64,000 nucleotides of DNA from Escherichia phage vB_EcoM_RZ: sequence record MW598459; one strand, written 5' to 3'. Below, in pieces: positions 44,719 to 47,399 of this stretch; within the stretch, counting starts at the first letter, position 1, and every line of letters starts with the position of its first letter. A model generated the notes under the pieces. That model was not told the origin of the DNA. It ran no database searches and worked only from the letters and a program-made list of their open reading frames with translations. A program made the translations under genes and the position numbers.

Positions 44719-45162
44719 TTAAATTTCAAATTCTTTGCGGAAGTTGGAAGCATAAGACTGAACTGACGCTTTGTTGAATCCAAACTCACGCACAATCATA
44801 TCAATAACAGCTCTGCGAGCAGCACCATTAGACATATTAACAGTTTTGAACATATCATAGCATAAATCTTTGTTGCTCATACCGGAGCGTTTAGGTGCCT
44901 TACGCTCAGCTTTTGGTTCAGCTTTAGGAGTAGGTTTAACTTCTGGGTTAACCTGTCCATCATTCAGACCTTTAAAAATTTTACCTGCCAGAGTTGCCAG
45001 TTTAGCAGCTTCGCCACGAGTGATACCAAATACTGCCGGGTTAAATGAAATACCTTCAGCTGTCAGACGTTTGAAGAACATACGTGCTGCGGATTGTGCT
45101 TCAGCTTCAGAAGAGTTGTTTAATGCCAGTTTAACATACTTAACCAGTTTTGAAGTTTTCAT
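44719..45162 (-). CDS. Hypothetical protein (147 aa), paralog of 45246..45671
   Basis: Track ORF 44719..45213 trimmed to ATG at 45162 (MKTSKLVKY...); shared C-terminal domain ..NGAARRAVID..QSYASNFRK. Confidence 0.5.
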   Translation of the reverse strand: MKTSKLVKYVKLALNNSSEAEAQSAARMFFKRLTAEGISFNPAVFGITRGEAAKLATLAGKIFKGLNDGQVNPEVKPTPKAEPKAERKAPKRSGMSNKDLCYDMFKTVNMSNGAARRAVIDMIVREFGFNKASVQSYASNFRKEFEI

Positions 45163-45204
45163 TTTATTATCCCGTTTGTTTATTTGGTAACTCAGTATGG
45201 GATA

Positions 45205-45234
45205 ATTATACATTATCCCACCTGGAAGTAAAAC
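45205..45234 (-). promoter_or_regulatory. Early promoter (-10 TATAAT inside hairpin TGGGATAAT/ATTATCCCA; weak -35)
   Basis: Read on minus strand upstream of ORF 44719..45162. Confidence 0.4.
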
Positions 45235-45245
45235 ACTTTTCTCAA

Positions 45246-45671
45246 TTATTTTTGAGCTTTGCGGAAGTTGGATGCATATGACTGAACAACAGTCTTTTTG
45301 ATATCATGGGTGGTAACCAGAACATCAATCAGAGCGCGACGAGCTGCATTATCATTCATATCAATTTCTGCAAATGCCTGGAAGCAAATGTCACGAGCGT
45401 TACCAGATTTGGACTGGATTTTTTCTTCTTTAACTTCTTCAATTGGGAATTCAATCATTTCAGCTTGGATTAATTCAATGATAGATTCTTTTGACTGTTT
45501 GGTGTTTACCTTCAGTTCAGAATTAAGGGACTTGGCAATGGCAACAATCTGGGTTGAAGTCAGATGGATAAGTGCATCTTCACGAATGCAGATTTCACAT
45601 ACTTCGTCAGCAACCATTTTGTTAGTGATGCGGGTAACAGAGAATGCAGAGGTCAGGGTCAGAAAGTTCAT
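45246..45671 (-). CDS. Hypothetical protein (141 aa), paralog of 44719..45162
   Basis: Track ORF 45246..45752 trimmed to ATG at 45671 (MNFLTLTSAF...); C-terminus ..NDNAARRALID..QSYASNFRK. Confidence 0.5.
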   Translation of the reverse strand: MNFLTLTSAFSVTRITNKMVADEVCEICIREDALIHLTSTQIVAIAKSLNSELKVNTKQSKESIIELIQAEMIEFPIEEVKEEKIQSKSGNARDICFQAFAEIDMNDNAARRALIDVLVTTHDIKKTVVQSYASNFRKAQK

Positions 45672-45722
45672 TTTATTTCTCCAAAGTTTTGTTTGATTCA
45701 GTGTGTAACTCAGTATGGAATC

Positions 45723-45752
45723 ATTATGCACCCGGTCAATCTGGATGTACAC
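45723..45752 (-). promoter_or_regulatory. Early promoter (-35 GTGTAC, 18 bp, -10 CATAAT)
   Basis: Read on minus strand upstream of ORF 45246..45671. Confidence 0.5.
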
Positions 45753-45812: not shown

Positions 45813-46367
45813 TTAGTTCTTATAAAAGCGGAACGGATTTATATGGAAGGCGAGCATAGCCTTAGGGATGGGTCGGGACAGAAGGCTCTTGAGCTTCCAG
45901 CCACAATAAACACGCAGATAAAAGGTGATTCCACCGACCTTAAGATAAGGAACAGAAGCAAAAACACCCCAGGCATTGTCCGTCCACATAAAGAGCCATC
46001 CGTGATGAGCTTTATCCGGGGAACCAGATTCGACATCAGGATTACCTTTATAATGGAATTCTGAATTGCAATCACGACCGAGCTTGTGGTAAGCAAAATT
46101 GTATGCTTTGTTTCGCCAGAGCCAGGCTACTCGTTGGAAGTAAACACCTAATGGCCATTTTCGGATTTTTGACCAACGTTTGACATGACCCCGGTCACCA
46201 TCAATCGGATTATCATAAGTCATCATCCAATCAAACCCGAACGGAAGTTTACCAGTCTTTTTATTATGGAACGGAACTACAAATGGAGCCAGGATAACGG
46301 CCAGAATCATGGAGATAAAATCCAGCGGAACTAACAGAATCCAACTCAAATATTTTAACAGTTTCAT
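45813..46367 (-). CDS. Hypothetical membrane protein (184 aa)
   Basis: Track ORF 45813..46508 trimmed to ATG at 46367 (MKLLKYLSWILLVPLDFISMILAVILAPFVVPF); upstream part of track ORF overlaps the RNA region. Confidence 0.5.
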   Translation of the reverse strand: MKLLKYLSWILLVPLDFISMILAVILAPFVVPFHNKKTGKLPFGFDWMMTYDNPIDGDRGHVKRWSKIRKWPLGVYFQRVAWLWRNKAYNFAYHKLGRDCNSEFHYKGNPDVESGSPDKAHHGWLFMWTDNAWGVFASVPYLKVGGITFYLRVYCGWKLKSLLSRPIPKAMLAFHINPFRFYKN

Positions 46368-46390
46368 ACGTTTCTCTTTAGTTGATTTAT

Positions 46391-46418
46391 AAAAAAGCCC
46401 CAACCTTTCGGAAGGGGC
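46391..46418 (-). terminator. Hairpin with U-run on minus strand, probable terminator of the tRNA/small-RNA transcript
   Basis: GCCCC...GGGGC inverted repeat preceded by A6 on plus strand. Confidence 0.4.
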
Positions 46419-46458
46419 TATACCTTGTCGGGGTTCCACCTGCAAGGCAAGTGTTTGT

Positions 46459-46550
46459 ACGAAACGCCGGGATTCGAACCCGGTTATTAAGCAGTTGACG
46501 CTACTCAATATTTTTAAAAGGCCATATCTCGACCATATCCGAACGTTCCG
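46459..46550 (-). ncRNA. tRNA-like element (canonical T-arm CCGGG-TTCGAAT-CCCGG plus 7-bp acceptor-like stem) without a recognisable cloverleaf; possible small stable RNA
   Basis: Hand-folded from minus-strand sequence; 92 nt between paired acceptor-like ends; D and anticodon arms not identifiable. Confidence 0.3.
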
Positions 46551-46718
46551 TCAAAAACGCTACTCGGCTTACGGCAAAGATATTTCCTCGAATCGATAAT
46601 TCGGTGCGCCGTTTCTGCTGTGATATAAGGGGACATCAACAAATCGTAAAGATTTATTAATGTCAGTCCTTAAACAGGGAACATCAGTCCGACGACTTAC
46701 CGGTAGCGACCCGGTTTC

Positions 46719-46958
46719 TCATTCAATTGTAATAGCTAATTTGACTTTAACAACCTTATAATTGGAATCAAGGTCATTGAATTCCATAAAATTTGTTGCT
46801 AGTCTGCGAGTCGGGAAACTTAGATATTTATTATGTTCGGGTGGAGCAGTTAATGCAAACCATGGGACTTGTTTATCATTTTCGTCAAACTCATCAAAGC
46901 TATAAACCAGCTCGTTGCTGGTTATATCCATAACTGCATATGATTCACTAATAACCAT
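46719..46958 (-). CDS. Hypothetical acidic protein (79 aa)
   Basis: Track ORF 46719..47003 trimmed to ATG at 46958 with GAGGA RBS; the TTG-initiated extension overlaps tRNA-Arg. Confidence 0.45.
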   Translation of the reverse strand: MVISESYAVMDITSNELVYSFDEFDENDKQVPWFALTAPPEHNKYLSFPTRRLATNFMEFNDLDSNYKVVKVKLAITIE

Positions 46959-46973
46959 AATATCCTCAGTAAT

Positions 46974-47050
46974 TGGTCGGGGTGGTGGGATTCTAACCCA
47001 CAACCTACGGTTTAGAAGACCGTTGCTCTATACAATTGAGCTACACCCCG
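46974..47050 (-). tRNA. tRNA-Arg (anticodon UCU)
   Basis: Hand-folded cloverleaf: acceptor CGGGGTG/CACCCCG, D-arm GCTC..GAGC, anticodon stem ACGGT/ACCGT with loop CUUCUAA, T-arm GTGGG-TTAGAAT-CCCAC, 3' ACCA encoded. Confidence 0.75.
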
Positions 47051-47127
47051 GGTGGCCCCATCCAGATTTGAACTGGTAACCTTTCCCTTATGAGGGGACT
47101 GCTGCTAACCAATTGAGCTACAGGGCC
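47051..47127 (-). tRNA. tRNA with CAU anticodon (Met or Ile2)
   Basis: Hand-folded: acceptor GGCCCTG/TGGGGCC (two GU pairs), anticodon loop CUCAUAA, T-arm CCAG-TTCAAAT-CTGG; abuts tRNA-Arg. Confidence 0.65.
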
Positions 47128-47132
47128 TAAAA

Positions 47133-47399
47133 TTAAATTACAAATCCAGCGGGAGCATTATCATCTTTAATCATATGCTGAATTGTATGATAAGTTAGTT
47201 CTTCTGGTGCAACCAGATAAGCCGCAACGTTAACTAGTGGAATTATTTTTGGTTTAGCGAATGTGCTATCGGCAATTGCCATAAAGGACTCGCCGTCGGT
47301 CTCAACTTCGCCAAATTGACACTCATACGAAATAGAGCAGCGTTTGGTAGTGGTTGTCTTTGTTTTAGGGTCATAAAAAGCTAATTTTAATACTAACAT
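47133..47399 (-). CDS. Hypothetical protein (88 aa)
   Basis: Track ORF directly upstream of tRNAs. Confidence 0.4.
   Translation of the reverse strand: MLVLKLAFYDPKTKTTTTKRCSISYECQFGEVETDGESFMAIADSTFAKPKIIPLVNVAAYLVAPEELTYHTIQHMIKDDNAPAGFVI

Follow-up and report, generated by a model that had tools for sequence, protein, structure and literature searches.

The minus strand of the 64,000-nucleotide (nt) stretch of Escherichia phage vB_EcoM_RZ analysed here (sequence record MW598459; hereafter the window, numbered from its first letter) carries, judged from alignment with phage T4, the counterparts of two elements that are already known, the T4 small stable RNAs species 1 (rnaC) and species 2 (rnaD). 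Over its whole length rnaC is a transfer RNA (tRNA) mimic, whose own 5' and 3' ends make an acceptor stem stacked on a T arm. The segment 46722-46391 very probably represents the 3' end of a phage tRNA transcription unit, composed of rnaD, rnaC, a trailer hairpin and an intrinsic terminator; this high confidence covers the identity and structure of the two RNAs, not the decoy function considered below. T4 stable RNAs beside tRNA genes have been known since the 1970s, and as an entity the rnaD-rnaC pair is an ordinary one of the T-even phages. To our knowledge of the older literature, species 1 and 2 RNAs have been without an assigned function ever since.

Orthology with the T4 stable RNAs

The locus consists of the following parts, listed in the direction of transcription:

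46603-46722, minus strand: rnaD, ortholog of T4 species 2 RNA (blastn, covariance model R2, covariation)
46597-46602, minus strand: A/U-rich linker GAAUUA, presumed endonucleolytic processing site (flank comparison)
46458-46596, minus strand: rnaC, ortholog of T4 species 1 RNA, 139 nt by T4 annotation (blastn, covariance model R1, minimum free energy (MFE) folding, covariation)
46420-46455, minus strand: 3' trailer with hairpin GCCUUGC...GACAAGG, conserved with T4 (alignment, folding)
46391-46419, minus strand: intrinsic terminator of the tRNA/stable-RNA unit, a AGCCCCUUCC-GAAA-GGUUGGGGCU hairpin followed by UUUUUU (alignment, folding)

The T4 record NC_000866 annotates rnaD ("small, stable RNA; species 2 RNA") as a misc_RNA at 71053-71171, directly 3' of tRNA-Arg, and rnaC ("species 1 RNA") as a misc_RNA at 70908-71046. 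The alignment of the window with T4 is collinear from the first base of rnaD via rnaC and the 3' trailer to the terminator. In blastn comparisons, positions 46722-46603 are 88% identical to T4 rnaD over 119 nt and positions 46596-46458 are identical to T4 rnaC at 137 of 139 positions (98.6%); this collinearity, together with the identity to the T4 misc_RNAs, indicates that the locus is the rnaD-rnaC pair of a T4 relative. An earlier note on this stretch, made from its letters alone, had offered a counterpart of the T4 stable RNAs as one possibility, and this is the one borne out. However, what it described as a 92-nt tRNA-like piece and about 170 nt of non-coding sequence corresponds to two entire RNA genes, rnaD (46722-46603) and rnaC (46596-46458).

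Order, spacing, sequence, trailer, terminator and the position at the end of the tRNA transcription unit are all the same as in T4, with a few differences. The T4 rnaD directly follows tRNA-Arg, whereas an open reading frame (ORF) of 79 amino acids (46957-46719) intervenes here; the two rnaC sequences differ at two bases; rnaD ends in ACCA in T4 and in ACCG in the window; and the T4 trailer has an 11-nt insertion that the window does not have. In T4, RNAC and RNAD accumulate late, as seen by RNA-seq and Northern blot in a 2022 omics study that describes them as "of yet unknown functions" (PMC9697503). A primary transcript of about 1.75 kb is the precursor of the eight T4 tRNAs and of species I and II RNAs (PMC2330249, the SegB paper), and the same paper, citing Broida and Abelson, places the transcript end after the species I RNA gene.

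The 361-nt region is found by blastn in about 800 records of the phage collection, and nearly all of the matches listed belong to T4-like Straboviridae of Enterobacterales, headed by TH57 (99.4%) and the Gaprivervirus CJ20 (97.5%). The window is thus, on blastn similarity, from a T4-like coliphage whose nearest records, among the matches listed, are Gaprivervirus phages. No blastn match to the region was found among 5,426 complete E. coli genomes, which speaks against a host origin.

A covariation-supported tRNA-like fold of rnaC

Homologs of rnaC were collected from T4, RB69, SP18, Shfl2 and VR7, from Karam-, Moon-, Kanagawa-, Winkler-, Kagamiyama-, Gelderland- and Mosugukvirus members, from Klebsiella phages and from metagenomic contigs, and 24 sequences from about a dozen genera were aligned. 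RNAalifold on eight of these homologs gave a four-arm fold, from which we built covariance model R1. This model finds full-length rnaC in all of the distant phages (71-164 bits), including nine with a different internal 60 nt, and scores the window rnaC at 163.5 bits. Over the 24 homologs 92.6% of the alignment cells are paired, as against about 40% in slid controls, compensatory changes occur in 33 of the 53 pairs, and none of 500 shuffles reaches the observed values. The MFE fold of the window rnaC is the same cloverleaf (-50.2 kcal/mol, z = -4.55), PM2 and Melville rnaC each fold independently into this shape, and the length is kept at 139-142 nt. The arms are as follows:

46595-46589 (CGAUUCG) with 46466-46460 (CGUUUCG), minus strand: acceptor stem, 7 base pairs (bp) (covariation)
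46519-46588, minus strand: D-side domain, a 3-bp stem AGG/CCU (46588-46586 with 46521-46519) around a long hairpin (covariation)
46523-46522, minus strand: GG, candidate T-loop partner, just 5' of the 3' strand of the D-like stem (covariation with T-loop position 2, 46475-46476)
46485-46510, minus strand: anticodon-side arm, a 10-bp stem (46510-46501 with 46494-46485) with loop 2, CGUCAA (46500-46495) (covariation)
46467-46483, minus strand: T arm, a 5-bp stem with the canonical 7-nt loop UUCGAAU (sequence, covariation)
46456-46466, minus strand: acceptor 3' strand CGUUUCG (46466-46460), discriminator-position U (46459) and ACA (46458-46456) (flank comparison)

The T-arm motif CCGGG-UUCGAAU-CCCGG noticed in the earlier note is real (46483-46467, minus strand) and occurs once in the window, with 0 of 100 shuffles matching it even when two mismatches are allowed. 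At its third pair 9 sequences have G-C and 13 have U-A, and the arm abuts the acceptor 3' strand with no base between, as in tRNA. The acceptor stem pairs are C-G, G-C, A-U, U.U, U.U, C-G and G-C. Among the homologs the third is A-U in 9, G-C in 14 and G.U in 1, and in Pectobacterium phage PM2 the first has become A-U and both U.U have become U-A. The U at 46596 would be the N(-1) base of rnaC. After the acceptor 3' strand a U follows in every homolog, then ACA in most and CCA in the Klebsiella phages and PM2; at the position corresponding to NCCA, the window encodes U plus ACA.

This acceptor stem differs from the one first proposed. A 7-bp acceptor-like pairing of CGGAACG (46550-46544) with CGUUUCG (46466-46460) is indeed present in the window, but it is not a conserved pairing among the 24 homologs: only 82% of cells are paired, 500 of 500 column shuffles are at least as good, and the third pair is broken in 13 of the 24. 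The true partner of the strand 46466-46460 is the mature RNA's 5' end, CGAUUCG (46595-46589), and the acceptor pairing is hence corrected by a model backed by covariation. The strand 46550-46544 belongs to the apical helix under loop 1, where a G-to-A change turns a U.G pair into U-A. Another pairing seen by eye would form a local hairpin near the 5' end (CGAGGA-NNNN-UCUUUG), but the diverged homologs do not preserve it.

Nor are the D and anticodon arms, which the earlier note did not recognise, missing; both sides are present in expanded form. The D-like stem has an A-U pair in all homologs except PM2, where it is U-A, and encloses an irregular four-helix hairpin that ends in loop 1, UUGACG (46554-46549). 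Nine phages have D-side inner helices of different sequence with the architecture kept, and this inner segment therefore appears, from the alignment, to be a mosaic or rapidly evolving module within a conserved RNA. In these nine, the inner ~60 nt are unrelated in sequence and form the same helices with a UUGACG-type loop, while the tRNA-like core is unchanged (loci L007 628-766, L036 604-742, L029 831-971, L035 602-742, L033 604-745, L034 604-743, L030 828-967, L031 804-943 and L037 531-669). An A/U-rich linker leads from the D-side domain to the 10-bp arm, where 8 of the 10 pairs show compensatory change, and one unpaired A separates that arm from the T arm.

The unpaired loop sequences of rnaC are near-invariant across the genera sampled and the stems drift. 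Moreover, rnaC is 98-99% identical among T4, RB69, SP18 and Shfl2, while the adjoining rnaD is just 77-88% identical. This pattern bears on the second possibility raised in the earlier note, that of a degenerate tRNA decaying as a pseudogene beside live tRNA genes. A T arm without any match to a tRNA model (the best, tRNA-Sec, reaches 16.6 bits at E = 1.6) is what such a relic might show, but near-identity across four genera, 33 pairs with compensatory changes, a conserved length and a stable transcript demonstrated in T4 are not. The pseudogene reading is effectively refuted by this conservation pattern.

Predicted tertiary contacts

Loop 1 (UUGACG) and loop 2 (CGUCAA) are exact reverse complements, a match that for 6 nt has a chance probability of about 1 in 4,096. 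The Klebsiella phage clade has UUGGCG and CGCCAA instead, an A-U to G-C exchange; these are the sole loop changes in that clade, and they sit at the two positions that would pair, so that Watson-Crick pairing is kept. The loop-loop pairs are 99.3% paired over the homologs, and PM2 retains a 4-bp core. Since the two loops are complementary and covary, the anticodon end of rnaC is probably closed by an intramolecular kissing loop of 6 bp.

The GG just 5' of the D-like stem 3' strand is replaced by CG in CIP9 and Kc304 and otherwise invariant, and only those two phages have odd T loops (UGCAUGC and UGCAUUC). The pair between this dinucleotide and the T loop is accordingly G.U in 22 sequences and C-G in these 2, meaning that a G.U55-like contact would become C-G. 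This is only suggestive, but it makes the GG a candidate for an elbow-type tertiary contact parallel to that between G18/G19 and psi55/C56 of tRNA.

Comparison with known RNA families

rnaC shares with canonical tRNA the order of the helices around a four-helix junction, a 7-bp acceptor on a 5-bp T stem, the UUCGAAU loop, a discriminator base followed by a CCA-like triplet, a location in tRNA arrays and the candidate GG/T-loop elbow. In contrast to tRNA, it is 139 nt long, its D arm is replaced by a 3-bp stem with a 64-nt hairpin, and in place of a 5-bp anticodon stem with a 7-nt loop it has a 10-bp stem whose 6-nt loop CGUCAA pairs with another loop and offers no anticodon. Its acceptor stem also has tandem U.U mismatches, and tRNA models miss it. 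The tRNA-like domain of transfer-messenger RNA (tmRNA), which some phages encode, is likewise an acceptor/T-arm minihelix on a larger non-decoding RNA; however, rnaC has no G3.U70 (its third pair being A-U or G-C), no tag reading frame and no set of four pseudoknots, and is less than half the size. The bacterial and phage YrlA (Y-RNA-like) RNAs, viral tRNA-like structures and mascRNA are likewise non-coding, imitate part of a tRNA and are acted on by tRNA enzymes. In YrlA the stem formed by the 5' and 3' ends is the Ro-binding helix and the tRNA-like module is internal, whereas in rnaC the ends themselves make the acceptor stem; no Rfam family of that kind matched at E up to 10.

With an acceptor/T-arm minihelix of 7 bp, an invariant discriminator U, and CCA encoded in Klebsiella phages and PM2, it could be asked whether a trimmed and CCA-added rnaC is aminoacylated and carries an amino acid outside decoding, as do tmRNA and viral tRNA-like structures. 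We regard this as very improbable: most members encode ACA rather than CCA, there is neither an anticodon nor a long variable arm, a G3.U70 pair occurs in PM2 only, tandem U.U mismatches lie within the acceptor stem, and no tmRNA was called by ARAGORN and no tag reading frame is present. We know of no acceptor activity reported for species 1 RNA in the older literature.

ARAGORN on the window returned tRNA-Met and tRNA-Arg alone, with no tRNA or tmRNA at rnaC or rnaD. At the gathering thresholds of 4,227 Rfam families the two real tRNAs pass and no family covers rnaC or rnaD; at E up to 10 only chance-level matches appear, such as NsiR1 on the terminator. The best match within the tRNA clan, the tRNA-Sec hit mentioned above, is to be read against a gathering score of 47 and is built on the false acceptor pairing. 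Both RNAs thus appear to be without an Rfam family.

Pattern scans of IMG/VR and a metagenome collection gave 59 metagenome loci, and of 68 additional viral and metagenome loci, 20 gave a match to the covariance model. Those of the weaker-scoring loci that were inspected are all of sequence types already seen and have no new loop variants.

Coding potential and annotation

Both RNAs are conserved, structured, non-coding genes. The stretch 46551-46718 had been called non-coding, which holds, since the 42-amino-acid ORF there is not conserved; rather than being a spacer, it falls largely within rnaD and the 5' part of rnaC. That small protein genes occupy the locus has practically no probability in our assessment. 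Automatic annotations do call hypothetical proteins here, but substitutions follow base-pairing rather than codon logic, and the two ORFs concerned fare poorly. The 42-amino-acid ORF with a TTG start at 46514-46642 has an in-frame stop in T4, Melville, PEi20, Ursula, PM2, fGh-Ecl04 and the Klebsiella phages, and the 231-amino-acid TTG ORF at 45813-46508 (minus strand), which is annotated in CJ20, would have to cross the terminator and half of rnaC.

rnaC and rnaD are annotated in only a few of the phage records listed. In many of the GenBank phage records listed, the region is either unannotated or lies under spurious 'hypothetical protein' coding sequences (CDSs), which leaves an annotation gap. 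Such CDSs are drawn in many T4-like genomes over rnaC, over rnaD and even over the terminator, for instance at L002 1582-1710, at L011 574-702 and 708-869, and at L108 1433-2128, and over 45813-46508 (minus strand) of the window.

rnaD as a second structured RNA

For rnaD, a nine-sequence alignment and covariance model R2 were used, and covariation was assessed on 24 distinct sequences. The fold comprises a hairpin H1 (46715-46699), a closing helix H2 of GUCGUCG (46696-46690) with CGGCGCAC (46611-46604), helices H3 and H4, and a hypervariable central hairpin (46669-46629). Two motifs are conserved, GUUCCCUG (46682-46675) and UCACAGC (46623-46617). The window rnaD scores 139.6 bits with R2; among the distinct sequences 95.2% of cells are paired, 14 of the 23 pairs show compensatory change and none of 500 shuffles reaches what is observed, and the MFE has z = -3.7. 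The rnaD terminus is ACCA in T4 and ACCG, ACAG or ACCU elsewhere, so that the T4 ACCA does not reflect conservation of a CCA end.

rnaD is a separate structured RNA and evolutionarily separable from rnaC. It is present, and rnaC missing, in JS98 (L006), IME341 (L008) and TH40 (L014), which shows that loss of one RNA does not depend on loss of the other. In Klebsiella, Moon-, Kanagawa- and Karam-like phages, diverged copies resembling rnaD (16-33 bits) are found upstream of rnaC at a distance of a few hundred bases. The matches at 23-33 bits are weak but significant, have compensated helices and share the motifs AAGUCGUC, (G/A)UUCCCUG-type, UCACAGC and GGCGCA (L030 323-420, L031 323-418, L021 788-890 on the minus strand, L033 238-339, L003 342-472 and L015 6805-6907).

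The short conserved motifs of both RNAs, unpaired inside their own hairpins, also bear on whether these are base-pairing regulatory small RNAs, in which loops UUGACG and CGUCAA of rnaC and GUUCCCUG and UCACAGC of rnaD would pair with phage or host mRNAs or tRNAs; papers do loosely use the term regulatory RNAs. We consider such a role improbable. The rnaC loops complement one another and covary, indicating that their partner is internal, no target is known (no target search was run here), and T4 has no functionally characterised trans-acting small RNA (PMC3014915).

Placement in tRNA arrays and processing

In Karam-, Gelderland-, Winkler- and Kagamiyamavirus, rnaC is placed like one more tRNA gene. 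Annotated tRNAs flank it within the array, at distances of about 3-11 nt where they abut it: in Karam- and Gelderlandvirus it stands between tRNA-Trp and tRNA-Gly with spacers of 5-11 nt, and in Kagamiyama- and Winklervirus tRNA-Trp follows within a few bases 3' of it. Between tRNA-Trp and rnaC, phages of Karam-, Moon- and Gelderlandvirus have short A-rich spacers (AAUUA, AACAA, AAUAA). The spacer before rnaC is thus of the same kind as that after tRNA 3' ends, which supports maturation by the tRNA-processing machinery. For the linker between rnaD and rnaC, the p2Sp1 precursor of T4 is presumably the relevant precedent, in which we take RNase E to split species 2 from species 1.

The hairpin terminator pointed out in the earlier note is a hairpin followed by a U tract at 46419-46391 (minus strand) and folds with the upstream trailer hairpin at -27.3 kcal/mol (z = -3.3). 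A simple scan missed it because of a tandem U.U within its stem; it is annotated as a terminator in phage G2469.

In T4 as in the window, both RNAs stand last in the operon, ahead of the terminator. This raises the question of whether they act purely in cis, directing endonucleolytic cutting and protecting the operon 3' end, with the released RNAs as inert by-products. The tRNA-like ends and A/U-rich linkers that flank the RNAs would fit with this, as would the fact that a trans function has never been found. Such a module is possible but doubtful in our view: rnaC lies mid-array and not at the end in Karam-, Gelderland- and Winklervirus phages, the near-invariant unpaired loops with drifting stems imply more constraint than a processing signal needs, rnaC is far better conserved between genera than the adjoining rnaD, and rnaD has undergone a convergent adaptive change, described in the next section.

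No match to the T4 late-promoter TATAAATA was found on the minus strand within 46300-47300, and sigma-70-like promoter matches in the region are not above chance in number. One of these, TTGTTA-16-TACAAT at 46753-46726 (minus strand), lies inside the end of the upstream ORF and stops 4 nt before the 5' end of rnaD.

Possible functions in the host

When a T4-like phage was evolved on ECOR34, a semi-permissive host, all three lines acquired the same single-nucleotide polymorphism (SNP) in rnaD (PMC12685909), and a 2026 paper (PMC13096335) shows that the T-even tRNA locus counters the tRNA-cleaving defence Septu. One or the other RNA is missing in some relatives, JS98 and TH40 being without rnaC and other genera having only diverged rnaD-like copies. 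This separate occurrence and loss, together with the adaptive rnaD SNP, suggests host-specific roles for the two RNAs, perhaps in a tRNA-centred arms race between T-even phages and bacterial defences.

rnaC is probably excised from the polycistronic transcript like the neighbouring tRNAs, with the 5' end cut by RNase P or RNase E and the 3' end trimmed exonucleolytically, possibly with CCA repair. The closed and compact fold probably makes rnaC stable, letting it accumulate late in infection. As to its function, we tentatively propose that rnaC may serve as a decoy or sponge, being a tRNA mimic whose anticodon side is masked, a model whose probability we rate as modest. The RNA could offer its acceptor/T minihelix to host factors that bind tRNA while decoding is impossible. 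It might in this way sponge a defence enzyme directed at tRNA, for example, or an enzyme of RNA processing, and the outcome would be host-specific fitness rather than an essential function. The more specific version, in which rnaC is a decoy or inhibitor of a host tRNA-directed enzyme (an acceptor-end-modifying enzyme or a tRNA-cleaving toxin) and rnaD a second, independent anti-host RNA, seems rather unlikely to us as a whole.

Several points weigh against the masked-mimic and decoy interpretation. The kissing loop is supported by one compensatory event in one clade plus the perfect 6-nt complementarity. The ends of rnaC are those of the T4 annotation, with a start 1 base before the acceptor stem and an end within ACA. 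The non-canonical T loops of CIP9 and Kc304 mean that recognition cannot depend strictly on the T-loop motif. As no binding partner is known, the decoy idea is without direct support; reviews and recent papers call the function unknown (PMC3014915, PMC9697503, PMC12685909) and no experiment assigns one. The literature covered here on species 1 RNA function or structure, a scope outside which the 1970s sequencing papers and the 2003 genome review fall, contains only statements of unknown function.

If true, the decoy reading would assign a function to rnaC and rnaD and add a new RNA-based class of counter-defence in T-even phages. The comparative model in any case makes an old orphan testable, as it specifies the true acceptor stem, the kissing loop, the conserved NCCA position and the candidate elbow contact.

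Flanking genes

The minus strand reads, in order, tRNA-Met, tRNA-Arg, a short ORF, about 330 nt without a conserved reading frame, and a gene with its ATG at 46365. The features upstream of rnaD are:

47127-47051, minus strand: tRNA-Met (ARAGORN)
47050-46974, minus strand: tRNA-Arg (ARAGORN)
46957-46719, minus strand: ORF of 79 amino acids with a TGA stop at 46721-46719, between tRNA-Arg and rnaD

The first bases of rnaD overlap the TGA of this ORF. The spacer between tRNA-Met and tRNA-Arg is 'CC' alone (47052-47051), which implies that the CCA of tRNA-Met is partly encoded and would need completion after the RNase P cut at tRNA-Arg. Further along, two adjacent ORFs at 44719-45213 (164 amino acids) and 45246-45752 (168 amino acids), both on the minus strand, look like paralogs and have in common the C-terminal segment '...AARRA(V/L)ID...VQSYASNFRK'.

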